Assembly: GCA_016794985.1 (NCBI GenBank)
Contig: JAEUIQ010000047.1
Location: forward strand, 134,122 to 198,121
Length of the DNA stretch: 64,000 nt
Origin: Planctomycetaceae bacterium
Lineage (GTDB): Bacteria > Planctomycetota > Planctomycetia > Pirellulales > Pirellulaceae
Direction of reading: 5' to 3'
Position 1 is the stretch's first letter. Each line of letters begins with the position of its first letter. The translations under genes and the position numbers were made by a program. Positions 21,423-34,585 of this stretch are shown piece by piece. The notes under the pieces were generated by a model. The model was not told the DNA's origin, ran no database searches, and was given only the letters and a program-made list of their open reading frames with translations.

Positions 21423-23117
21423 TTAACGTGAAGGTACGGCTCGAGCGCGCAAGGTTGCTCCCCCGGTTAAGTTTTGCACGTGGTGAAATCCCAACTGTCG
21501 GAGGATGCGGGCAGCCACATGCCCACGGACACCGACCCCGCAACTCACCACCGTTCGAGCCGATCGGTCCAACTCAACATATCTAGTTCGAAGTTCATCT
21601 AATGGAATGTTGATGGCCTGCGGGGCAGCCGTTAGCGGTCGGTCACGAACTTCGTTGGTGGTCCTCACATCAACAACTTGAAGCCCAGTGAGATCGGCAT
21701 CGGCATCAATGAAGTCTTCGAGACCATCAAGCTGATTCGACGCCGCGAAAGCGGCTTGATGGATCGGATCTTTCGCCGAACCAAACGGAGGGGCGTAGGC
21801 TAAGTCTAGCCCAGCCAAATCACGTACTGTGCCGCGAAATGCCATGGCCGTCGCGACAACATCCAGACGCTTGTCGACACCTTCACGACCGATGGCTTGG
21901 GCTCCCAAGATGCGCCCATCTTCCGGAGAATAAGTCAACTTCAATGTCAACGGCTGCGCTCCTGGGTAGTAGCCCGCATGATGGTTCGCAATGACGGTGA
22001 CACTCCGGCTTGGTATGCCAAATCTCTTGGCAGATGCGGCGCTCAGTCCAGTGATACCGACGGACAACTCGAAAACTCGCACGATGGAAGTTCCAAAGAC
22101 GGACGCCATCGGCGCGCACTGCCCAGTGGCTGCGTGTTCGCCAGCCAAACGTCCTGCGCGATTTGCCGGACCAGCGAGCGCGACGCGCATTGAGGTTCCT
22201 GTAGGACCATAAGGATATTCCGCAGCATCACCGACCGCGTAAATATGCGGATCACTCGATTGCAACCAACGGTTGGTCGCAATTCCACCACTGGCACCGA
22301 TTTGCAGGCCAGCGTCCACGGCCAACTGCGTTTGCGGGCGGACCCCTAAACCCAAAATGACGAGATCCGCATCCAAGACCTTGCCGCTGGCCAACATCAC
22401 ACCAGAAGCCCCGCCAGCACGATCAAGCATGACCTTTTGAATGCCGTCGCCCACATGGACGGACACGCCGTGGGCGGCCAGTTCATCCATCAAAGGCTGA
22501 CTCATTTCCGGATCGAGTATCGGCAGAACGTGTGGCTGCAACTCCGCCAACGAAACCTGAAAGCCACGCCTTTGGAGCTGTTCGACCATTTCCAGTCCAA
22601 TGAATCCCGATCCGATCACGGCGGCACGTTTGCCCGCACTTGTTCCAATCGCGTGGTGAATCCGATCGGTGTCCGACATGTTTCGCAGCGTGAAAACTCC
22701 ACTAGCGGAAAGACCTTCCAACGACGGGGTCAACGGAGCCGCACCAGGTGCCAGAATCAATTTATCGTATTCCAATTGGTACGACTGTTGCGAGTGATGA
22801 TCGAAGACCTCGACGCATTTCGAATTTGGATCGATCCGCCGAGCCTCGTGTCGGGTTCGCACATCCAACTTGAAGCGACGACGCAAAAACTCGGCCGTTG
22901 CCACAAGCAGTTTTCCGCGAACGGCAATTTCCCCTCCTAGATAATAGGGGAGTCCGCAATTAGCAAAAGAAACCTCGTCATCTTTCTCCAACAGCACAAT
23001 TTCCGCAGCTTCATTCATTCGCCGCGCTCGGGTGGCTGCCGAGGCACCACCAGCGACGCCACCGATGATGACAATTCGTAATGGCTTGGTTGTCATGTCC
23101 AATCGCTTCCCGACCAA
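21423..23117 (-). CDS. FAD-dependent pyridine nucleotide-disulfide oxidoreductase of the CoA-disulfide reductase/NADH oxidase class with C-terminal rhodanese domain (CoADR-RHD-like)
   Basis: IVIIGGVAGGASAA (FAD GxGxxG), active-site SFANCGLPYY (CoADR/Nox redox Cys), second Rossmann AAVIGSGFIGLE, C-terminal rhodanese with CGVGVRG Cys loop. Confidence 0.8.
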   Translation of the reverse strand: MVGKRLDMTTKPLRIVIIGGVAGGASAATRARRMNEAAEIVLLEKDDEVSFANCGLPYYLGGEIAVRGKLLVATAEFLRRRFKLDVRTRHEARRIDPNSKCVEVFDHHSQQSYQLEYDKLILAPGAAPLTPSLEGLSASGVFTLRNMSDTDRIHHAIGTSAGKRAAVIGSGFIGLEMVEQLQRRGFQVSLAELQPHVLPILDPEMSQPLMDELAAHGVSVHVGDGIQKVMLDRAGGASGVMLASGKVLDADLVILGLGVRPQTQLAVDAGLQIGASGGIATNRWLQSSDPHIYAVGDAAEYPYGPTGTSMRVALAGPANRAGRLAGEHAATGQCAPMASVFGTSIVRVFELSVGITGLSAASAKRFGIPSRSVTVIANHHAGYYPGAQPLTLKLTYSPEDGRILGAQAIGREGVDKRLDVVATAMAFRGTVRDLAGLDLAYAPPFGSAKDPIHQAAFAASNQLDGLEDFIDADADLTGLQVVDVRTTNEVRDRPLTAAPQAINIPLDELRTRYVELDRSARTVVSCGVGVRGHVAARILRQLGFHHVQNLTGGATLRARAVPSR

Positions 23118-23196
23118 AAGATTCGTTGTCTTTCATTATCCCCAATGAAGAAACGTATCAATTCAAGGAGCGGACTTCAATCCGCCCAGTTGTCAC

Positions 23197-24699
23197 TTAC
23201 TCTTCGACGACCATGGTTTCTAAGCGAACAAAAGCGTGGGCAGCAAGTTCTTGAGCATCGATCGCCGACTGTTGGATCGTCAGGTAAGATCTTTGAGCCG
23301 TGAGCAGTTCTAAATAATCGATCTCGCCCTGCTGGTGGGCTTGTTGGGCTAATGTCAATCGTTCCTGGGCCATCGCCAGTAACGTGGAATTGATCTGTTG
23401 AGTCATCGCGCGCGCCGCTTCGTACTGCCCACTAGCCTCGGCTACCCGCGCCATGATTCGTCGCTCGATCGACGAAAGATCCGCTTGCAGACGAGTAACT
23501 TCCCCTCGAGCCGCTTGCACGAGTCCGTTTTTGCGATCCGTGATTGGTAACGCAACACCTATTTGAATACCAACAATGGTATCACGACTCAATGCATCCT
23601 GTTGGACCGATGCTTGCGTGTTGACATTGGGAACAATTTCAACTTCCGCTCGCCGCAATTCGCATTTGGCCGACTCCCACGAGGCGCGAGCTGCGGCCAA
23701 TTCGGGACTAGAGACTTCGATCGAGGCCACATCTTGGCTAAGTATCGTGGGCCAAGGATCGCTGCCAATCGCGTCGACTTGCTGTTCAGTAATCGCCAAC
23801 GTCTGCGCTAATATCCGGCTTTTCGCTACCGCATCGATCTCGGCTTGTTGCCGCGCCATCACTACTTGGGTCTGTTCCAATCGAGCTTGCAAGACAGTGC
23901 CTTTGCTCACTTCAGCCGCCTGGAACAATTTTTCGTTTATCGCGACGGCCTCGCCCAAGAGCAATTCCAACTGTGTGAGCAGAGCCACTCGCTGCCGCGC
24001 GGCCACCAAACTCCAATACTGACTTTGCACACGACGACTGAGTCGCATACGCTCCACTTCCAACGCCGCTTCGGCCGCGACGACTCGCCATTGACCTATT
24101 TGCTCGGCCAATGCGAGTTTACCTGCCGTTACCCACTCTTGAGACCAGAAGATCCCTTGTTGCCCGGCGCTACCTTCTTGGCCGATCTCGCCGGCCATGT
24201 AACCAACAACCGGGTTTGGCCAACGGGTGGATTGGAACTGATTACCGGACTCTCGCTCAATAACTGCTGAGGCCCGAGTCAATTCAGGATGTGTCGAAAA
24301 GGCCAGATCCAAAACAGAGTCCAAATGTCCAGATGAAGAAACAGCAAGGACTTGCTGTTCAGCGACCGGCACTGGATCCATGGCGGCGATCGTGACGACC
24401 GGTTCCAGTCGATTGGAAACGACTCGCGTTTCCCCGACGACTTGATTTGTGATTCTGTTCGTTGCCGTCGTTTTGACAACCAAGACGTTCGGTTGCAACT
24501 TAGAAGTCCGTTTAACTCCTTCGATCGAACTCGATTCGGAGCGAGCCGCAACATCCATCCGCGGCGCGCGAGGACTTGATTCTTGGGCATTAACGGCTGA
24601 CAACGCAATCGCCTGGGCCGCCACACAAGTCCAGATGCCGAGTCTCACCCGAGCGACTTGAATCTTCTTTTTTTGGAAATTGTTCACAGAATCTTTCAC
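23197..24699 (-). CDS. TolC-like outer membrane efflux protein (outer membrane factor family), signal peptide
   Basis: Signal peptide, two repeated alpha-helical/coiled halves typical of OEP family proteins. ~500 aa. Confidence 0.7.
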   Translation of the reverse strand: MKDSVNNFQKKKIQVARVRLGIWTCVAAQAIALSAVNAQESSPRAPRMDVAARSESSSIEGVKRTSKLQPNVLVVKTTATNRITNQVVGETRVVSNRLEPVVTIAAMDPVPVAEQQVLAVSSSGHLDSVLDLAFSTHPELTRASAVIERESGNQFQSTRWPNPVVGYMAGEIGQEGSAGQQGIFWSQEWVTAGKLALAEQIGQWRVVAAEAALEVERMRLSRRVQSQYWSLVAARQRVALLTQLELLLGEAVAINEKLFQAAEVSKGTVLQARLEQTQVVMARQQAEIDAVAKSRILAQTLAITEQQVDAIGSDPWPTILSQDVASIEVSSPELAAARASWESAKCELRRAEVEIVPNVNTQASVQQDALSRDTIVGIQIGVALPITDRKNGLVQAARGEVTRLQADLSSIERRIMARVAEASGQYEAARAMTQQINSTLLAMAQERLTLAQQAHQQGEIDYLELLTAQRSYLTIQQSAIDAQELAAHAFVRLETMVVEE

Positions 24700-25257
24700 C
24701 CGACAGCTGACGCGTTGACTTCCCCAAACGCCTGGCAGTTGCGTTCCTAACGAACTTGTCGGAATGACCAGCTGGTGCGATCAACAGGCAGGTGTGGATC
24801 GTGCCAGTTGTCCGCAGAATTCAGTTCCGATTGTGACGGATTTCCGGATTGCGCCTGGTAAACTGTCTACGGGTGGCGGGATCGAGCTGACTCCAGATCG
24901 CCGAAGATAGCTTCGCCCCAGTGGGGCAAGGATTGTCAGTTACCGCCCGCGCAAACGGCCATTGTTCCGCAGGCCGCCGCTTCGACTTCGCTCAGACAAA
25001 CGCCTAAGCCGAACGATCACGTTTTGACGTTACATCCAAGACTTCTGAATCTGCTGAATCTACAATTGGACGTCGCGAGAATTCGATCCGGCCGTTCAGC
25101 CAGACCAGTCTTTCCGGCGCGCGAGTTCCTTCGCAGATCGTTTCGGAAGTGCGGATAAATCCGTGGCTCAACCGAGAAAAACTCGGTTGCAGCCAACCAG
25201 TCCGACGACCGCCGCGTGATGTGAATTGAGTTCCTGTCGTAGAGCCACATCGGCGGC

Positions 25258-28200
25258 TTATTCTGGACTTCGGGGAGTCTCGGGATGTTCCTGTGGGACT
25301 TCGGGATCGTCGTATTTGGCGGCGATCATTTGTTTGTAGTGTGCTTCCGTGGCCTTTGCCGCACGTTGGAGTTCCCGTCCACCTTCGATTTTTTCGGCCA
25401 TTGCCAGTAGCGGTTCCATCCAGGCTTGGAGAATTTGGAATTGCCCGGTGATCACTTTCATAAACGCTGTCGGGACTCGGTTGGAAACATGAATCTTGAC
25501 TGGACGATCTTCTGTAACGGTCGCATCGGGCGCGCGACGATTTTCGAGCAGCGATTGCTTGATCTCTTGCAACGACTGATTGAATTTCTCCAATTGTTGA
25601 ACCGCTCCACCAATCTGTTGGATCGTCAGGTTTTGCATGACAGTCCGTTCCGGTGCGCTGGCGTACTCCAACCATCGTTCAACACCGTGCGTCAACGTCG
25701 AGCGAATTTGCCCGAGACCATCACTGAACAACGCCAATTGCGCAATGATCTGTGACGCCTGATCATCTCCGGCAGCCGCGGCACCCAAAACTTGGTTGCG
25801 ACGATAGGTTTCTCGAATACCATCCCACCTTAGCTTCGCCTCGCCCTGCAAGCGGCCCGTGATCTCTTTGAACTTGAGTAGGTTGGCTTCGGCGTCAGTG
25901 GTCAGCGTTTGGGCTTGGTTCTCGAAATGCGAATCAATCAAAACCTGCAATTCTTGATCATTCATGATCGGCACGATCTTTTCTGCGATTTTGGCCATAT
26001 CACGATAAGAGCCCTGCAGTTTGAATGCCGGTTCCGTGCGGTACGCATCCGCTTGTGCCGCCGAGTAGATATACAACTCATTGACCCGTAACAGCACGTC
26101 GCGGACTTTCAAGAGCTTCTGCATGACCTTGACCATCTCGTTCACTTGGCTGGAAGAGAAGTTCCCCTCCAACGCCGCGTGCGTTTGCCCGTTTTGCGCG
26201 GCCATTTCGATGATCGTATGGACATCTTTTTGGCTGGCACTTTGCAACGGAGCCAACGCCGAATTGGATGTCAAGCAATTTTCCAGATAGCTGAGCTCAA
26301 ATGCCTTGGCTTGATCGCCAATCACATCGCCCAAGTTGTACGTATCCGCTCGATTAGCCAACATATCCGGGATCTTGAACTTCTCGCCACTTTCCGTGTA
26401 CGGATTACCCGCCATGACGACGCAAACTTTCCGGCCACGCAAATCGTACGTCCGCGTCTCACCCTCGAAGACGCCTTCAATCTTTCGTTGTCCGTCGCAG
26501 AGCGAAATAAACTTCTGCAAGAACTCCGGATTGCAGTGCTGGATATCATCCAAATAAATCATCACGTTGTCGCCCATTTCCAACGCGAGATTCAGCTTCT
26601 CCACTTCCTGCCGGGCACTGGCATTGGGCGCTTCTTGCGGATCCAACGAGGTGACGTGATGACCAATCGCAGGGCCATTGATCTTCACAAAAGTGATGCC
26701 CAAGCGATTCGCGACGTATTCCATCAAGGTCGTCTTGCCATATCCCGGGGGCGAGATCAGTAATAGCAAACCCATGAGATCGGTACGTTTGTTTTCTCCA
26801 ACTTCACCCATTTGCTTCGCTAGGTTGGCACCAATCAACGGCAGGTAAACTTCATTGATGAGTCGGTTACGCACGAAGGACGTCAGCACACGGGTCTCAA
26901 ACTGGTAAAGCTTCAATTCCTTTCGTTTGCGGTCAAGCAAGTTCTTCTTGTCTTCGACGTAGCGATTGAATCTGGGGACCACCACGCTTTGAAATTTCAG
27001 CAGTCTCTCCAGATAGTCATAAAAGTCGAAGTGGTAGTGGGTGTTGTCGATCTGCGCATGGCTACCGATCATTCCATTGACCGTGACCTCAGGGTCACAG
27101 GCATGAGCATGCCCGATTTGGTCGCCAAGCAAATATACCAACGCCGCTTCCTGCACGAGCCGATACCGATCTGCAGCGACTTTTTGCTGGCGTTTCGCTG
27201 TATTTTGCGTTGATTCCACCGCTGCCGAGTCCGCTGGTTCGCGCGTCGCGATCAGCGTCGCCTCACTCAAGGTCTTGGTCGCTGCCTCAATCAAATTGGC
27301 CCCCGGATCCAAATGCACCAAGAGATGCTCCAAGACACCCGGTTGGTCGGCGAATGCGGTGATCCACAACTGAACCATTTCCAAGCGTGGGCGACTAGAT
27401 TTGAGTGCCTTTACAGCCGTATAAAACGCCTCGTTGGCACGTCGAGACTTCAAAAACTCGATGAACCCATCCAGTAAATGCTTGGCATCATTAGAACAAG
27501 GCAAGCGATCGCCGGTCGTCAGACATTCGTACAGATACTCGGCAGCGGATCTCGCCATCGCAGAATCGAATCCTTCCGACTCCCGAACCATTTGCGAAAT
27601 TGAATCGCTCAAACGCCTGAGCAGCGCCTCATTGGCTCGACTGTCCGGAAACAGAGTCCGCATCGCGCGAATTCCCTGCAGCTGAAACGTCACCTCAGCT
27701 TTGTCCAAGTTCGGCCACACTTGCCTCAACCAAAAGAACGTAGCCAGATTACGAACACTCGCCGGCTGTCGCAGGATTCCCAAAGCTTGATGTTTGTCTA
27801 GGATCACACGCAGGATCTTTGCGGTATCGTGATCGTGAACTCCCTTGAGGTAACTTTCATGATACCGAGGCGCCATGAAGAGTTGAACTTCACCGATCAT
27901 CTGTTGCTCGGTCATGGCATACCAGCGTTGAATTTCGCTGCGGTTGGTCAACAGTTGATCATAAAGCAGCTTGGCCAAGTACTCGCAACGATAGACCTCA
28001 CGATTCTCAGATACGACCTCTTGTGCCATGAGCTCGGGATCGAACTCCAGGTCTTGTGGTGGCACCGGGCGGAAATAGTTTGTACCGGACAAATGAAAGT
28101 ACAATCGACCGTCTTTTGTGACCGTCGTCAAATCCAACGCCTGAGAATTGGTCATGAATTTGTATTTGCCAAACTGAATGACCTTGCCCCCGTCGAGAAA

Positions 28201-30852
28201 CAATTCTTGGCGATCTTTGAGCTGCCGCACCGCGTCTTCGCGAATGGTCTTCAATTGACTTTGAACATCATCTACTTTGACGGACTCTTGCAGCGATTCC
28301 AACTCCTTGACGATGTCTCGAATCTTTTCGACCATCAAATCCGCTGCAAAATAAGCGTGTATCGCGTCGATCTTCTCCATCTGTGACACTCGGCTGCGAA
28401 TTCCACCCAAAATTCGTTCGGCAGCACTCATCAAAGCGCTGGCGCGACGATTACGGGCTTCCTGCAGTTGCAGCTTTTTGTTGTCAAATGCGGAGTAAAT
28501 CTCTTCTCGCTTCTCAGTTAGTTGCAGAACGAACTCGTCGAATTCCGCAAATCGTCCTTCCAGCTCTTCCAGCTGCACCATCGTCTTCGTCAAATAGTCG
28601 TCGCAGCGCTGGGGGGTATCGCAGACCTCAAGATAGTTGACCACCGATTGGCCCAACAGCTTAAGTTGCGAATGAAACTCGGCCTTCCCTTCGACGCTCA
28701 ACAACTGTTTCGTCGCATTTTTCAACTTGGCCCGCGTCTGATTCAACTGAGAATAAATCGCCGAAATGTCGTCGATGATCTTCGTACGTTGCGTAGCATC
28801 CTCGATTTTCAAATTGCTGATCACTTCGATCAGCATTTCCAAGTCCTTGCTAGTTCGTTCAATCTCGGCCTGAAGTGCGTTGGCCTCCGTCACTTTCGTC
28901 AATGCCTCGATGCCGGCGAATTGTTTCTCGACTCGTTGATGATAGGGCACCAACGCCTGTGGCTGCAGGAGAAACTCGACACTTTTCTGTGAACACGCTT
29001 CCGTCTCGGCTTGTACTTGCGATTCCAAGTTCTGAACTTGTTCGAGATCGATGTACTTCAAGTCCCGCAGGCCAATAATTTCGCCGCGTACGGAGCGCAA
29101 ATCCGACAATTGTTGTACAAAATCATCAATGGTCTGGAACATCTTTTGATAAGATTGGCGGAGGACGTCTTTGGTCCGATTGCTTACCGTATCAAATCGC
29201 TGTTTCGTTTCGCGCCGGGCTTGGGTCACTCTTTCAAATTCGTCGATCGCAGACGTCGCGACGCTGCGTATTTCACTGAGAACACCGGCGACATCGAAAG
29301 CCTCGCTTCGTCCCAGCCAGAAATACGAGTCGACGGTGTCGGTCGTTCGCTTGACCAAGTCGACGTAGAGGTTGGCGTAGTTGTCGTCTTTATTCAATAA
29401 ACTATGAATCTCATGGCACTCGGCCATGGCCCGCACCACATCGCGATTCCCAATCTTAAACAAAAAGGAATCCTGATTGCCCGTCGTAAGCCCAGGAAGC
29501 GTTAGCCCTTCCTTGAGAAACGGCGTCTGCCAAATTTGTAGCGAGTGATGCTTTTGGGGACTGGCGTCCGCTCTCACCAGCAACATTTTTCCATCATCAA
29601 AGAAGCAAAAGCCGCCGCAGGTGGTCGGCGTTCCAACGGCCTGTTGGATCATATTGTACGTCAACAACAAGTAAGCGCCAGACACACGATTGTAGAACAC
29701 ATACAAGTAATCTTCGCCGTTGGCCGCAGCCAGACGTTTTTCATACACCAAGTCCACTAACCCCGTTTCGAACAATTTGGACTCGCCGGTCTGTAGGTAA
29801 TAGCCGTTGCTGAAGATCAGTCCGTGATCCTCCGGCAAGAGAATACAGGCTTCCCGTATCGAATCCAATCGCATCGCTTTGGCGGTCTTCTCGTTGTAGA
29901 CCAAGTAGCGATAGTTCTGTTCGCGGAATGGTTTGATTCTCAGCAAAATCAAGTTACCAACAATCGCGTAAAATATCTCGGCATCATCCAACGTCTGATC
30001 GCGATCTTCCACGGGTTCGCTATAGATACCAACCCCATCTTCGGTGTTATCCTCGACCTTGATGGTCAGATCGCCGCCCACCGTTTCTACAAAGACACGG
30101 TCTTCGATCGAAATGTGCGGATGTTTGCCGCTGCGATGCAGATCACGGTGCGTACGCGTCCAACGGAACTCGTGCTGGGCCGGATACTTGACCTCATGAT
30201 CGCTGCGATTGTCGACGTAGCGAAGTCTATCGCCCTCCAAAAGCCACTTGAAGGATTTGACGTTTTTCGGATCATCACCGACTTGAAAGACAAAATACAA
30301 GAAGGCGCCGATTTGCTGAAACTTCGAAAAGCGGGTGCCTTTGTAATACTTGTAGAGCTGTCGAAAATCATTTTGAAATGCCGGATCGCCCAACAACTCC
30401 ACGCCGACCTGGGTCAGTTGTTCACCTTCCCGACGGTAAATCGAAAAGACATCCTCCAAGTGAGTCTCGTTCCGCAACCCCATTTGCACGTTGTAACCAA
30501 AAATCAATTGATCACCAACGGCCACCAAATCACGCGCCACACAGTTGTGTTCGGTCGTGATTCGCTGCGTTGAAAGCAGTTCGGTGGGAATCGAACCGAA
30601 CACGGCTTGACGCGACTCATTCAGTTTGGCCAATCGCTCTCGCAACAATTCCGCTTGTTGAGTCAAACGATTTCGCAGCACTTGGTAAGTGCCCTGATCC
30701 ATCGCCGGGAGGGAGGTGGCCCCACGATCGACGGTGGCTGGAGTCGCCTTGGATTTGTCGTCGGGCGTGCTCATGGGATGAAAGACCTTGGAAGGGATTC
30801 GCCAATCGCTGATGGAAGCGACCTGTGGCCGCAGCCACTCGGCCACGACCAC
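25258..30852 (-). CDS. giant (1864-aa) protein: N-terminal ~500-aa globular region, ~400-aa coiled-coil, central helical region, single MoxR/AAA_5-type AAA+ ATPase module near the C-terminus
   Basis: Walker A LLISPPGYGKTTL, Walker B VMIYLDDIQ, sensor-1 VVMAGNPYTE, R-finger region LANRADTYNLGD. Spacing matches MoxR/AAA_5. No other catalytic motifs. It is co-oriented 130 nt downstream of flotillin. Confidence 0.8.
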   Translation of the reverse strand: MVVAEWLRPQVASISDWRIPSKVFHPMSTPDDKSKATPATVDRGATSLPAMDQGTYQVLRNRLTQQAELLRERLAKLNESRQAVFGSIPTELLSTQRITTEHNCVARDLVAVGDQLIFGYNVQMGLRNETHLEDVFSIYRREGEQLTQVGVELLGDPAFQNDFRQLYKYYKGTRFSKFQQIGAFLYFVFQVGDDPKNVKSFKWLLEGDRLRYVDNRSDHEVKYPAQHEFRWTRTHRDLHRSGKHPHISIEDRVFVETVGGDLTIKVEDNTEDGVGIYSEPVEDRDQTLDDAEIFYAIVGNLILLRIKPFREQNYRYLVYNEKTAKAMRLDSIREACILLPEDHGLIFSNGYYLQTGESKLFETGLVDLVYEKRLAAANGEDYLYVFYNRVSGAYLLLTYNMIQQAVGTPTTCGGFCFFDDGKMLLVRADASPQKHHSLQIWQTPFLKEGLTLPGLTTGNQDSFLFKIGNRDVVRAMAECHEIHSLLNKDDNYANLYVDLVKRTTDTVDSYFWLGRSEAFDVAGVLSEIRSVATSAIDEFERVTQARRETKQRFDTVSNRTKDVLRQSYQKMFQTIDDFVQQLSDLRSVRGEIIGLRDLKYIDLEQVQNLESQVQAETEACSQKSVEFLLQPQALVPYHQRVEKQFAGIEALTKVTEANALQAEIERTSKDLEMLIEVISNLKIEDATQRTKIIDDISAIYSQLNQTRAKLKNATKQLLSVEGKAEFHSQLKLLGQSVVNYLEVCDTPQRCDDYLTKTMVQLEELEGRFAEFDEFVLQLTEKREEIYSAFDNKKLQLQEARNRRASALMSAAERILGGIRSRVSQMEKIDAIHAYFAADLMVEKIRDIVKELESLQESVKVDDVQSQLKTIREDAVRQLKDRQELFLDGGKVIQFGKYKFMTNSQALDLTTVTKDGRLYFHLSGTNYFRPVPPQDLEFDPELMAQEVVSENREVYRCEYLAKLLYDQLLTNRSEIQRWYAMTEQQMIGEVQLFMAPRYHESYLKGVHDHDTAKILRVILDKHQALGILRQPASVRNLATFFWLRQVWPNLDKAEVTFQLQGIRAMRTLFPDSRANEALLRRLSDSISQMVRESEGFDSAMARSAAEYLYECLTTGDRLPCSNDAKHLLDGFIEFLKSRRANEAFYTAVKALKSSRPRLEMVQLWITAFADQPGVLEHLLVHLDPGANLIEAATKTLSEATLIATREPADSAAVESTQNTAKRQQKVAADRYRLVQEAALVYLLGDQIGHAHACDPEVTVNGMIGSHAQIDNTHYHFDFYDYLERLLKFQSVVVPRFNRYVEDKKNLLDRKRKELKLYQFETRVLTSFVRNRLINEVYLPLIGANLAKQMGEVGENKRTDLMGLLLLISPPGYGKTTLMEYVANRLGITFVKINGPAIGHHVTSLDPQEAPNASARQEVEKLNLALEMGDNVMIYLDDIQHCNPEFLQKFISLCDGQRKIEGVFEGETRTYDLRGRKVCVVMAGNPYTESGEKFKIPDMLANRADTYNLGDVIGDQAKAFELSYLENCLTSNSALAPLQSASQKDVHTIIEMAAQNGQTHAALEGNFSSSQVNEMVKVMQKLLKVRDVLLRVNELYIYSAAQADAYRTEPAFKLQGSYRDMAKIAEKIVPIMNDQELQVLIDSHFENQAQTLTTDAEANLLKFKEITGRLQGEAKLRWDGIRETYRRNQVLGAAAAGDDQASQIIAQLALFSDGLGQIRSTLTHGVERWLEYASAPERTVMQNLTIQQIGGAVQQLEKFNQSLQEIKQSLLENRRAPDATVTEDRPVKIHVSNRVPTAFMKVITGQFQILQAWMEPLLAMAEKIEGGRELQRAAKATEAHYKQMIAAKYDDPEVPQEHPETPRSPE

Positions 30853-30982
30853 AACCTAGATAGCTGATATTTTGCGGCCCGCCCACCGCGTTCGATGTGT
30901 CGAATCATCGACCTCTCACGCTAACGTCGTGGTGTGCCGGCAAATGCCGAACACCACTCAGCCAGCGACCAGGAACTGTCGG

Positions 30983-33019
30983 TTAGGCCTTCTTCTGAGC
31001 CGGTAATAGACTCATCGAAGCGGCTTTGGTCGCGCCAACTCCCAGGTTCTGAGCCATCCTCAGCAGCCCTTCCAATTGGTGCTGGATCGATTGATCTTCG
31101 GACTTGCCGATCAATTGGCCCAACAAGGCCGAAATCGTCAGATTCTTGATGTCGGCGCTAGATACCCCGAACAAATCAACAAAGTGTTGAACCTGTTGCT
31201 TGAAGTTCTGAGCATCTCCGTTGAAGAACGTTTCCTTCACGTCCGTCAAGACGCGACTCTCTTGAACCAGTCGGTCCACCTGCTTGCCAGCCGTCACGGA
31301 ACCGACGATCGCTTCGAAGAATTTGTTGTCGCCTCCCACGATATCGATTTTGGCCTTTTCCAGTGACTTCGCAATCATGCTGGCTTGAGCTTCGGCGATC
31401 CGTTGCTGGACCGCAATCGCTTCCAATTCGATGTCGCGATCTTTGTTCAATCGCAACTTGAACTCTTCGTGTTCGCGGCCCACGCCATCGAACAGCTTCA
31501 TCGCTTCGGCCTTTTGGGTGATACCCTTCGCATCCGCAGCAAACTTTAGTTCCATGACTTCGGCCTCGGCCGTGCCTTCCTTGCGCAAGGCCTCCGCCAA
31601 GGATTCCTTGCCACGCGCCTGAGCTTGCAAGCTGCGTTCGGTGACTTCCGCTTCGGCCAAGCCCGGGGCCGCTGTCTCGACTTTGAGAGCTTCGGCCAAC
31701 AATTTCTTGCCTTCCGATTGCTTTTCGGCCGCGTTGCGTTCGGCTTCTGCACGAATGATGACCGTTTTGGCAGCGTGCTCCTGAGCCTTGAGTTCCGCCT
31801 CGGCTTTCTTGATCTCAGCAACCAATAACTGCTCGGCTTCTTCTTCGGCCTTGGTCACAGCGACGCGTTTGGAACGGTCCGCACCCGCGTATTGTTTGGT
31901 GTCTTCGATGCGTTCTTGTTCTTCGACAACCGCTCGTTCCACCATCACGCGCTGACGAATAACTTCTTGAATGTTCTTCTTTTCGACTTCGACAACCTTT
32001 TCCTTTTCTATCTGAGCCAAGGTCACCACTCGTTCTCGTTCGGTGATTTCCAAACCACGATCTTTTTCGACACGTTCGGTCTCGACCGCGTCGGTTCGCT
32101 CTTTATTCTTTTGAGCTACGATAATCGCGCGGAGACGATTCTCTTCGGCAATCGCAATTTCTTCGTCGGCACCGATCCGAGCCAATTCTGAACGTTGCCG
32201 TTCTTGTTGCGCAACGATTTCGGCTTCCGCCCGTTGGCGAGCTTCAATTTCGGCAATTTCGCGTTGTTGTTTCTCTTCCGCCTCGCGTTGTTGACGTTGA
32301 AGGGCCAAAATCGCTTCCTTGGCTTCCACGTCTTGTTTGGTAATCGTCTTTTCGCGTTCTCGGCGGATCAAGTTGGCTCGGACTTGTTCCTGAGCCGTCA
32401 ACTCCGTAATCTTCTTAATACCTTCGGCATCCAAGACGTTGTTTTCGTTCAGCAATTCGATCGAGGTCTGTTCCAAATAGTCGATCGACGCATCGTCCAA
32501 GACGTAACCATTGAGATCCTTACCGATAACACGCAGAATCTCTTCACGGAACTTGTCGCGCTCCGTGTACAGTTCCGTGAAGTCGAAATGCTTGCCGACG
32601 GTCTTGAGAGCTTCCGAGAACTTGGGTTCAAACAAAGCCATCAAAGCTGGCTGTTGGCTAGCACGTTCGCATCCTAAGAACTGGGCAACTTTTTGAACTT
32701 CTTCCGGCTTCATGTTCACCCGGACGAAGAATGCCACTTCGATGTCCGCTCGAATGTTGTCTTTGCAGATCAAGCCGTCTTGACCGCGTCGTTTGATTTC
32801 GATGCGTTTGACCGAGATATCCATCCACTCGACCCGATGCAGAACAGGAATGCAATGCAATTTATCGAAGGCGACTTTGGTGCCACCGGTACCATTGCGT
32901 ACAATCGCCGTACCTTGTTTGACGATCCGAAGCGTCATCACGTAGAAGACGGCAACACCGAGGAAGATAAATGCAATCGCAGCTACGGCGACAATTCCAA
33001 TAATCCATAGATCAAACAT
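30983..33019 (-). CDS. flotillin-like SPFH/band-7 protein (YqiK/FloT type) with very long Glu/Ala/Arg-rich coiled-coil
   Basis: N-terminal TM hairpin (IIGIVAVAAIAFIFLGVAVFYV), SPFH core (…IVRNGTGGTKVAFDK…PVLHRVEWMDISVKRIEI…), then EA-repeat coiled coil. 678 aa. Confidence 0.85.
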   Translation of the reverse strand: MFDLWIIGIVAVAAIAFIFLGVAVFYVMTLRIVKQGTAIVRNGTGGTKVAFDKLHCIPVLHRVEWMDISVKRIEIKRRGQDGLICKDNIRADIEVAFFVRVNMKPEEVQKVAQFLGCERASQQPALMALFEPKFSEALKTVGKHFDFTELYTERDKFREEILRVIGKDLNGYVLDDASIDYLEQTSIELLNENNVLDAEGIKKITELTAQEQVRANLIRREREKTITKQDVEAKEAILALQRQQREAEEKQQREIAEIEARQRAEAEIVAQQERQRSELARIGADEEIAIAEENRLRAIIVAQKNKERTDAVETERVEKDRGLEITERERVVTLAQIEKEKVVEVEKKNIQEVIRQRVMVERAVVEEQERIEDTKQYAGADRSKRVAVTKAEEEAEQLLVAEIKKAEAELKAQEHAAKTVIIRAEAERNAAEKQSEGKKLLAEALKVETAAPGLAEAEVTERSLQAQARGKESLAEALRKEGTAEAEVMELKFAADAKGITQKAEAMKLFDGVGREHEEFKLRLNKDRDIELEAIAVQQRIAEAQASMIAKSLEKAKIDIVGGDNKFFEAIVGSVTAGKQVDRLVQESRVLTDVKETFFNGDAQNFKQQVQHFVDLFGVSSADIKNLTISALLGQLIGKSEDQSIQHQLEGLLRMAQNLGVGATKAASMSLLPAQKKA

Positions 33020-33021
33020 GA

Positions 33022-33684
33022 CTACTTCTTACCTCCCACGGTTGCGATCAAATAAGTGTTGGACTGTGAATCATGCGACAAGATCTGGACGACCTCGCCT
33101 CTCTTAAAGCGATCCATCGCAGCCGCTCGCGCATTGAGCACGATTGGCGGTCCTTGTTGTTCAATGGTAACCTGCCCAAATGTTTCGGTAACTTCGCTGG
33201 TTGTCACGGTGGCTAATTTGCCCACTAAAGTGTTTTCAAGTTCGCCGTGATTCTTGCTCATCTCGTCGAAGAACGACAGAAACGGCAAAAAGAACACTTT
33301 AGTCAGGAGCAAGCTTCCCGCCATGATCGGAGCCCACAACCACAGACCACGAGTTATTTCGGCACTCGGGTTCCAAAAGAGATTGGTGGAGACCGTCGCT
33401 GTCCAAAACACGAGCGCGAAGACTGATACCAGGAACATGGTTGGCACACGTCCCAGATAAAAGAATCCCAACACTGCTTTGAACGCTCCTCCCACTCCGA
33501 CCGTGGCACTCGCAACGTCAGGAACGCCTTCCGTTGGAACCGTGGGCTCAAAGTTCCAGTCGAAATCAAAAACCCCAAGGTCCAGCATCCCGAAAATCAC
33601 CAGCGACCAATAGAACAGTACCAGGATCAACAGGCCCGTTGCAGGCAAGTTGACTGGGTTAAAAAAACTCTGAATCGTTTCCAC
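33022..33684 (-). CDS. NfeD/YqiJ-like membrane protein (N-terminal TM helices + C-terminal OB-fold), partner of flotillin
   Basis: Three to four TM segments, then a C-terminal beta-rich segment (GKLATVTTSEVTETFGQVTIEQQGPPIVLNARA…GEVVQIL) like NfeD OB domains. The stop is 2 nt from the flotillin start. Confidence 0.7.
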   Translation of the reverse strand: METIQSFFNPVNLPATGLLILVLFYWSLVIFGMLDLGVFDFDWNFEPTVPTEGVPDVASATVGVGGAFKAVLGFFYLGRVPTMFLVSVFALVFWTATVSTNLFWNPSAEITRGLWLWAPIMAGSLLLTKVFFLPFLSFFDEMSKNHGELENTLVGKLATVTTSEVTETFGQVTIEQQGPPIVLNARAAAMDRFKRGEVVQILSHDSQSNTYLIATVGGKK

Positions 33685-34585
33685 GTCTTATCGCTCCTTC
33701 TGATCCGCCCGATAGACCATTGATTTTGGCGAGGTTCAATCCAAAGCCATTTCAGTTGTGCGCGAGTCCGCACACAAGTCCTTTAGCATTGAATCAACCT
33801 AGCTTTCAGCTTATGGCTGCCACCCTCCGATTGGGAAGGAGAACGCGGAGTGATTCGGGATTTTGGCATCTGTATTGCCCGAATTCCGGCTAAGTGTAAC
33901 TCGGATTTTTGCGCCTGGGCCGACTTTTTCAACGCAATGGCTGTTTTTTGCCAGCGGAATCGATTCAAACGGTCGTTCTTGCCATTTTGGCAGACGTCAA
34001 TCGCCACGCTTTTCAGCTCACGATCCTCTCGGGCCCCGCCCTCGCGATTCCAAAACAAACGTGCCTGGTTTCGCTTCGGCAATCGTGTTAGGCTCGCCCC
34101 ATCACTTGTCACTTGCTGGATAAAGTGTTCGACGCAAGACGAGAGAACCTGTACGATAAGAAACCTTCATAACCGACCCGCGGCGTGGGCCGCGGGATCC
34201 CTAAACGCTCTCTGTGCGATTCATTGTCATGATGGCCAACAAGAATTGGTGTCGCTCAGGAGTGGCTCGAATCATTAATCAACCATTCATAGCCGTGGCC
34301 AAGTTATCGGTAAGCCAACCTCGCACAAATAAGGTTTCGGATTTAGGGACAATCCTTGTGAACCGCCGCTCAAACATCAACGGTTCGAGATTGCGGAAAG
34401 AGACACGTCCGTCGCGAACGGAATGTTTGGCGGTCAATCGGATGCCGAATATGACGCTTGTACGGAAATTGACATTCGAATTGCAGTTTCTTGATCGCGC
34501 AGCGGATCTTTTCGTGCGCGAGACGGGCCGCAGAATACTAAGTATCAGTGTGAACTGAAAACCGTTTTTCTTCTAGGATCCCGAA

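Follow-up and report, generated by a model that had tools for sequence, protein, structure and literature searches.

Analysis of a 64-kb window (the whole stretch of DNA considered here) from contig JAEUIQ010000047.1 of a Planctomycetaceae bacterium (Pirellulaceae; assembly GCA_016794985.1) showed three co-oriented open reading frames (ORFs) on the minus strand, encoding a YqiJ-like membrane protein, a flotillin and a giant ATPase. The three genes are a conserved bacterial operon, known from many phyla, and the window holds another Pirellulaceae copy of this published operon type, with nothing new in kind. What is added here is a quantified synteny count, a structural assignment of the ATPase motor as MoxR-like, an invariant Asp-Asp Walker B motif, and the finding that the family name 'DNA repair ATPase' is unsupported by domain content. 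The product of the operon is most likely a module for membrane stress or membrane remodelling, whose ATPase would act on the flotillin assembly or on its clients, a mechanism that we infer. The genes are arranged as follows.

33022-33684, minus strand: yqiJ-like gene, 220 aa, in which three transmembrane-like segments and an acidic linker precede a C-terminal domain that is beta-rich (NfeD/YuaF-like).
30983-33019, minus strand: YqiK-type flotillin (SPFH) gene, 678 aa.
30775-30982, minus strand: flotillin-ATPase spacer, 208 nt; it folds into two strong hairpins, of which the first immediately follows the flotillin stop codon and lacks a U-tract.
25258-30774, minus strand: giant soluble ATPase gene, 1,838 aa from an ATG; the ORF as listed (25258-30852) extends to a GTG at 30852, giving 1,864 aa.

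The stop codon of the yqiJ-like gene (33022) and the ATG of the flotillin gene (33019) are separated by 2 nt. A sequence-only reading of this DNA had described the three ORFs, this short junction and a set of ATPase motifs, and all of these are present.

Conservation of the arrangement was determined from a genome scan with one genome per species, in which a relative of the ATPase occurred in at least 589 genomes. Eighty loci among the matches listed were compared, drawn from Planctomycetota, Bacteroidota, Verrucomicrobiota, Desulfobacterota, Clostridia, Lentisphaeria and Chitinispirillaceae. Six had less than 0.7 kb of upstream sequence and could not be judged, leaving 74 judgeable loci. A flotillin homologue was encoded upstream of the ATPase on the same strand in 68 of these 74, from at least seven phyla among the matches listed. 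Where at least 2.5 kb of upstream sequence was present, the count was 60 of 62 loci; where 1.4-2.0 kb was present, it was 8 of 12, the homologue then lying at the contig edge. Using tblastn, a YqiJ-like gene was found in 51 of the 60 flotillin-bearing loci with at least 2.5 kb upstream. Planctomycete homologues, at 54-88% identity, displayed the same triad with different flanking genes. The family was also found by tblastn on plasmids of Hymenobacter, Pseudomonas, Streptomyces, Deinococcus, Vibrio and others. In four annotated plasmid loci, from Hymenobacter, Pseudomonas fluorescens (pQBR103), Streptomyces and Deinococcus, the triad was complete, the ATPase gene being preceded by a gene for a 643-722-aa protein, named 'flotillin/SPFH' or unnamed, and one for a small membrane protein.

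These counts bear directly on whether an ordinary yqiJK-type pair might simply lie beside an unrelated large gene. The 208-nt spacer with its hairpins would be compatible with such an accident, as would E. coli yqiJK, which has no such gene downstream. However, 68 of the 74 loci that could be judged, spanning at least seven phyla, share the adjacency with flanks that differ, as do plasmids of four further genera. This synteny count excludes chance adjacency. The comparison supports the view that the three genes are a functional unit. The functional link between flotillin and ATPase that the sequence-only reading had proposed is thereby borne out, since the synteny is conserved across phyla while the flanks differ. 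That reading had proposed a check for the combination of flotillin and giant ATPase in other genomes, and it is conserved both within Planctomycetota and in other phyla. It would have abandoned the link had the spacer contained a promoter or terminator and the adjacency not been conserved; no such sites were found in the spacer, and the adjacency is conserved. Its remark that giant AAA+ proteins are not a normal feature of flotillin operons does not hold, as the association is widespread and has been published (PMC11237479).

Insertions and losses were also observed among the compared loci. In some Bacteroidota (as at L013, 6609-7695, and L060, 5865-7765), two or three small non-conserved genes lie between the flotillin and ATPase genes, including those for a DMP19-like protein, DUF3997 and DUF3592, and unannotated ORFs. 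Two loci without an upstream flotillin have other neighbours: L019 (2372-5017) adjoins genes for a STAND NTPase and a TPR protein, and L040 (5921-6508) one for a Uma2-family endonuclease.

The flotillin-ATPase association is already known, because Ravi et al. 2024 (mSystems 9:e00847-23, PMC11237479) described a CesT/Tir-PspA cluster with a band-7/flotillin protein, an AAA+ ATPase and a 3-transmembrane YqiJ/YuaF protein. The same authors noted a wider distribution for abbreviated operons, which lack PspA, and proposed a role in sub-membrane dynamics, with chaperone-like roles for the band-7 and AAA+ partners. Their paper contains no structure, no assignment to an AAA+ clade and no experiment. 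All three components of their abbreviated operon match the window, namely a flotillin with transmembrane, SPFH and coiled-coil parts, a propeller/AAA+ ATPase, and a 3-transmembrane YqiJ/YuaF protein. Among the loci compared here, the CesT/Tir (YjfI)-PspA dyad usually precedes the triad in Bacteroidota (20 loci), and does so on the Hymenobacter and pQBR103 plasmids; loci L003 and L004 have this extended form, and the window ATPase is orthologous to the ATPase genes of both. The dyad was found in none of the listed Planctomycetota, Verrucomicrobiota or Clostridia loci. In the 64-kb window, tblastn with the Hymenobacter and Pseudomonas PspA and CesT/Tir (YjfI) proteins found neither component, and the locus is therefore an abbreviated form of the operon. 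Unlike the extended operon of Ravi et al., it has no CesT/Tir, PspA or HKD phospholipase gene. Searches of the literature for DUF3686/PF12458, for 'DNA repair ATPase' with flotillin, and for YqiK with AAA+ and propeller found nothing.

The 678-aa protein is clearly, by sequence comparison, a YqiK-type flotillin. It matched E. coli YqiK by BLASTP (5e-41, 29% identity over 474 aa, SPFH region included), with its SPFH region aligned to YqiK residues 25-200, and the family profile matched YqiK with an hhalign probability of 99.96%. The protein alone had no match in Pfam (even at E 10), NCBIfam or PDB sequences. Pfam Band_7 was passed by 6 of 29 homologues (best E 9e-11), and relatives are named flotillin, YqiK or SPFH by their sources. 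Composition and transmembrane prediction divide the protein into the following regions.

Residues 1-35: membrane anchor, the single N-terminal hydrophobic segment.
Residues ~35-200: SPFH region.
Residues ~211-500: Glu/Ala-rich helical region, a stretch of ~290 residues with 20% Glu and 17% Ala.
Remainder: conserved C-terminal region.

The length of 678 aa, earlier thought unusual, falls within the 643-723 aa of ATPase-linked flotillins; E. coli YqiK, in comparison, has 553 aa. With the YqiJ-like protein, the flotillin makes up the familiar NfeD-type/SPFH pair; E. coli yqiJ-yqiK and B. subtilis yuaF-yuaG (NfeD2-FloT) have the same two-gene core in the same order as the window. Downstream of yqiK in E. 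coli K-12 lies the sibD/ibsD locus, with sibD on the other strand, and not an ATPase gene. An assignment to SPFH5 (YqfA; Hinderhofer 2009) was also considered and rejected, as that family is the ~330-aa COG4864 group and the 678-aa protein aligns to YqiK.

The 220-aa protein is a YqiJ-family 3-transmembrane protein, as identified from three hydrophobic segments in its hydropathy profile and from profile comparison. A 32-member family alignment matched E. coli YqiJ with an hhalign probability of 97.1% (E 6e-11), and the aligned part reached into the C-terminal region. BLASTP of the single protein against YqiJ gave no match, so that profile comparison alone worked. Pfam YqiJ_N was matched by 14 of 32 family members, the window copy scoring 16.9 bits, under the cut-off. 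The top PDB profile match of the family, the NfeD-like soluble domain of B. subtilis YuaF (2k14), was weak (E 0.14), and PF01957, the NfeD OB-fold, was weakly matched by 1 of 32 members (E 0.008). The protein earlier labelled 'NfeD-like' therefore belongs to the YqiJ family, and the NfeD OB-fold itself is only weakly detectable.

The ATPase gene most likely starts at the ATG at 30774 rather than at the GTG at 30852. This start is preferred because a database protein 100% identical to the giant ATPase has 1,838 aa, because 30 diverse homologues align from the Met encoded at 30774, and because nucleotide conservation, in a spacer alignment with two close relatives, begins only ~25 nt upstream of this ATG. 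The spacer is therefore 208 nt long, not 130 nt, and both the 130-nt gap and the 1864-aa product given by the sequence-only reading need correction. The family is large, with more than 5,000 homologues in 945 clusters at 50% identity. Pfam analysis of the giant protein identified DUF3686 (1.5e-183), DUF7902 (6.8e-30), AAA (2.5e-8, 34.9 bits) and AAA_5 (3.2e-6, 27.6 bits; cut-off 22). No transmembrane segment was predicted in the protein, which is therefore cytoplasmic, like the bulk of the flotillin. Its architecture was examined using two AlphaFold models built from 60-sequence alignments, covering residues 1-1010 (mean pLDDT, the predicted local distance difference test, 80.7) and 830-1838 (mean pLDDT 82.6).

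29527-30582, minus strand: beta-propeller-like domain, residues 65-416, preceded by helix 29-59.
28201-29466, minus strand: helical arm, residues 437-858, DUF7902 included, with long helices in spectrin-repeat-like three-helix bundles.
26245-26877, minus strand: AAA+ ATPase core, residues ~1300-1510 of 1,838, followed by ~330 residues.
26728-26754, minus strand: Walker A motif SPPGYGKTT, from the translation.
26539-26556, minus strand: YLDDIQ, containing the Walker B motif LDD; the Asp-Asp pair is D1409-D1410 (26545-26550).
Within the AAA+ core, minus strand: sensor-1 Asn in MAGNPYTE and conserved Arg in ANRAD (RADTYNLGD), from the translation.

In the model of the N-terminal half, helix 29-59 leads into an all-beta region of ~28 strands (65-416), followed by the long helices (437-858) and a small beta domain (865-903). 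Foldseek searches of this half against the PDB returned propeller proteins, including IFT-A subunits, Elp1, the clathrin N-terminal domain, CyRPA, prolyl oligopeptidase and WDR91, at E 1e-6 to 1e-3 and with low global TM-scores (template-modelling scores). When the beta region was compared with itself by profile, no sequence repeat emerged. The models suggest a domain that is propeller-like but divergent, in agreement with the description by Ravi et al. The top matches over window positions 28201-30687 were eukaryotic coat and transport proteins with a propeller and a helical part (IFT-A, clathrin heavy chain, Elp1), with a global TM-score of ~0.1. This likeness probably reflects the shared propeller only, although the modelled layout of propeller and then helices is reminiscent of membrane coats. 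The helical arm, of ~420 aa, is modelled as bundles and not as a single long two-stranded coiled coil. The arm is followed by additional helical domains, small beta domains and a single AAA+ module. The domain outline drawn by the sequence-only reading therefore stands as to a globular N-terminus, ~420 aa of helices and one AAA+ module; it needs amendment in that bundles replace the long coiled coil and that ~330 residues follow the AAA+ core.

The architecture also bears on the names of the family, which NCBI labels 'DNA repair ATPase' and Pfam (PF12458) 'ATPase involved in DNA repair'. These names would imply an SMC/SbcC-like protein acting on DNA, with the flotillin adjacency unrelated. The helical region is weakly similar to the SMC-like LmuB and the P-loop region weakly matches RuvB, which points in the same direction. 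However, the protein has a single AAA+ module and not an ABC/SMC head split by a coiled coil, and RuvB matched only the generic P-loop region, at 22.7 bits against a family cut-off of 282. No DNA-binding or nuclease domain was found, nor any Mre11/SbcD-like partner or nuclease gene nearby, and the conserved partners are membrane proteins. With an AAA+ motor and no DNA-related domain or partner, a role in DNA repair is unsupported and weakly refuted, and we consider it very unlikely. The name has no support from domain content or gene neighbourhood, and probably comes, we infer, from similarity of the helical region to SMC/SbcC-type proteins.

The AAA+ core was examined further for its conservation and clade. 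In alignments of 30 and of 60 diverse homologues, the Walker A motif, the sensor-1 Asn and the conserved Arg were invariant. Both Asp residues of the Walker B motif, which is Asp-Asp and not Asp-Glu, were likewise invariant in both alignments. Most 10-residue blocks of the core were modelled above pLDDT 80. The model contains a beta-hairpin between helix 3 and strand 4 (strands 602-607 and 610-615, between helix 587-596 and strand 621-626), the position occupied in the pre-sensor-1 hairpin AAA+ clades. Foldseek searches with the C-terminal half gave similar E-values for RuvB, MCM, ClpA, spastin/Vps4 and MoxR-type ATPases. By target-normalised TM-score among full-length chains, the best matches were NorQ and CbbQ (0.55-0.65), ahead of full-length RuvB (0.36-0.42) and spastin/Vps4 (0.35-0.39); two truncated RuvB chains (146-173 residues) also scored 0.60-0.64.

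The module thus resembles, in its modelled structure, the MoxR ATPases (NorQ-NorD, CbbQ-CbbO, RavA-ViaA), with the hairpin before strand 4 and an AAA_5 match over the cut-off. The MoxR/AAA_5 resemblance noted from sequence was sound on both counts, namely the AAA_5 score of 27.6 bits and the best TM-scores to NorQ/CbbQ. The order of motifs, 'AGNPxxE...IPxxLxxR', also resembles the MoxR pattern 'ATQNPxE...LPxAxLDRF'. Comparison of the AAA+ family with E. coli RavA using hhalign, however, gave a non-significant probability of 7.6%, and the ATPase family profile had no match to PDB sequences at E 0.001 or better. Because sequence profiles link the module neither to RavA nor to any solved chain, 'MoxR-like' is used here for structural resemblance, closest to NorQ/CbbQ, and not for demonstrated membership. 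Unlike MoxR ATPases, the window protein has no VWA partner, is 1,838 aa long with a propeller and a helical arm, and has Asp-Asp where the Walker B consensus (hhhhDE) has Asp-Glu.

This resemblance raises the possibility of a client-directed chaperone. The flotillin/YqiJ-like scaffold would hold unfolded or unassembled membrane-associated proteins, and the ATPase would act on these clients rather than on the scaffold, by unfolding, cofactor insertion or complex maturation, as do NorQ and CbbQ. That the AAA+ module is structurally closest to these two MoxR-type chaperone ATPases is in favour of this possibility. The usual partner of a MoxR ATPase is a VWA-domain adaptor. No VWA domain was found among the window neighbours or in the gene tables examined for related loci, and this argues against the chaperone reading. 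No candidate client gene is conserved beside the triad, and the flanks differ in every lineage. Support comes further from a study in which S. aureus FloA-NfeD was reported to stabilise unfolded proteins without ATP (PMC11222466), and from the proposal of chaperone-like roles for the band-7 and AAA+ partners by Ravi et al. On balance we consider a client-directed chaperone rather unlikely, though it and remodelling of the scaffold are inseparable by sequence data.

An anti-phage or conflict system was also considered, in which a membrane-anchored sensor/effector pair and a large NTPase would trigger membrane disruption or abortive infection. Copies of the family lie on large plasmids, the flotillin-less L019 and L040 have conflict-type neighbours, and known conflict systems include large NTPases with propeller and helical extensions. 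Against this, PADLOC (PADLOC-DB v2) found no defence system. The flotillin and YqiJ-like protein had no match, and the sole match was of the ATPase to the SMC-like LmuB model, weak (1.6e-5) and confined to helical region 556-921. A search of phage genomes found no phage record encoding the ATPase. Around the triad are housekeeping genes, different ones in different genomes. No effector domain of the nuclease, protease, pore-former or NADase kind was detected by Pfam in the three window proteins, nor is one listed for their homologues in the gene tables examined for related loci. The recurrent partner in extended operons is PspA, a membrane-protection protein. A conflict system is accordingly improbable. 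The sequence-only reading had suggested a membrane-remodelling or defence module; of these, remodelling is reasonable, but defence is disfavoured by the absence of any PADLOC system and of any phage copy.

The non-coding parts of the locus were analysed for signals of transcription. On the minus strand of the 208-nt spacer, a consensus scan found no sigma70-like promoter or terminator-like match. The spacer RNA folds with an energy of -86.6 kcal/mol (z = -2.4). In close relatives the spacer is 44-243 nt long. A GC-rich inverted repeat at the matching position could be seen by eye in the closest relative (L088) and less clearly in another (L089), its sequence not being conserved. No Rfam family matched the spacer or the locus. 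These features are consistent with a single operon in which scaffold and ATPase may be differentially expressed, and the spacer may set the scaffold:ATPase ratio. Two further features flank the operon.

33844-33951, minus strand: conserved non-coding element containing the inverted repeat GATTTCGGG/CCCGAATC; it lies 160-267 nt ahead of the start of the yqiJ-like gene.
25184-25199, minus strand: candidate operon end from consensus scan only, a terminator-like hairpin whose tail is rich in T, 59 nt beyond the stop codon of the ATPase gene.

The upstream element occurs once in the window and was 77-82% identical in L088 and L089, the remaining upstream intergenic DNA having no blastn match. The sole sigma70-like promoter match on this strand (33932-33905) overlaps it. 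The element is probably the operon promoter/operator or a 5' leader. A 109-aa ORF (33783-34112) also overlaps it and is probably not a gene. The downstream hairpin is weak evidence for an operon end, because the count of such sites in the region was not above the expectation from shuffled sequence. A 223-aa ORF at 25004-25675 (minus strand), in another frame and overlapping the 3' end of the ATPase gene, has no Pfam match and is almost certainly spurious. Further downstream (21423-24699) are genes for an outer-membrane efflux protein (OEP) and a Pyr_redox/rhodanese oxidoreductase. Both are also found in L088 (9423-12927), with a DDE transposase between them; in more distant relatives the neighbouring genes are unrelated.

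Taken together, we give a little better than an even chance to the reading that the locus is one conserved operon for a flotillin-based module at the inner face of the cytoplasmic membrane, with the ATPase remodelling the scaffold. Gene order, shared strand, the 2-nt junction and a spacer with no promoter or terminator match argue for the operon. The conserved triad, the YqiK/YqiJ homology, the invariant AAA+ motifs, the MoxR-like fold and the description by Ravi et al. 2024 (PMC11237479) argue for the module. By analogy with solved SPFH complexes, which include SPFH-NfeD cages such as QmcA-YbbJ (8z5g), the flotillin and YqiJ-like protein would together build a ring or cage against the cytoplasmic side of the membrane. 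The ATPase would oligomerise through its AAA+ module, probably as a hexamer as in other AAA+ proteins. Its propeller and helical arm may allow it to reach the flotillin assembly, and ATP would drive assembly, disassembly or other remodelling of the scaffold. Where a lineage also has PspA, the ATPase may act on the PspA/ESCRT-III-like polymer. The role of the whole would be membrane-stress protection or repair.

SPFH scaffolds are coupled to AAA+ machines at the membrane in HflK/C-FtsH and in prohibitin-m-AAA protease. These complexes provide the best mechanistic analogy for the flotillin and AAA+ ATPase pair. Unlike FtsH and the m-AAA protease, the window ATPase has no protease domain or transmembrane anchor and belongs to another AAA+ lineage; its gene adjoins the SPFH gene. 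A second likeness is to Vps4 and ESCRT-III, in that the AAA+ ATPase gene is linked in extended operons to PspA, a member of the bacterial ESCRT-III superfamily. The homology to Vps4 is limited to the AAA+ fold, with no MIT domain, and the window has no PspA.

Several observations weigh against the scaffold-remodelling reading. Because the spacer measures 44-243 nt and a hairpin follows the flotillin stop codon, separate or attenuated expression would be possible. In 6 of the 74 judgeable loci there was no upstream flotillin and unrelated genes were found instead, so the ATPase can be encoded apart. The Asp-Asp form of the Walker B motif, in place of Asp-Glu, may make ATP turnover slow or regulatory. 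No solved family could be assigned to the AAA+ module from sequence profiles. The literature that could be searched contained no experiment on any member of the ATPase family.

A more specific proposal can be made tentatively: the DUF3686 ATPase would use ATP to remodel flotillin cages and, in operons linked to PspA, PspA/ESCRT-III-like polymers as well. Its functional counterpart would be Vps4, or FtsH within HflK/C, and it would combine a MoxR-like motor, an unusual Asp-Asp Walker B motif and a propeller carried on a spectrin-like arm, through which it would reach its substrate. We regard this as possible rather than probable. A 2025 review (PMC7619361) states that a Vps4-like ATPase appears to be absent in bacteria; the proposal, if true, would fill that gap. 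The ATPase occurs in tractable hosts, including Pseudomonas fluorescens (pQBR103), Flavobacterium, Bacteroides and Streptomyces. The question at stake is how bacterial flotillin and PspA assemblies are built up, turned over and coupled to energy, and the flotillin-linked giant ATPase is an obvious candidate for such a role.

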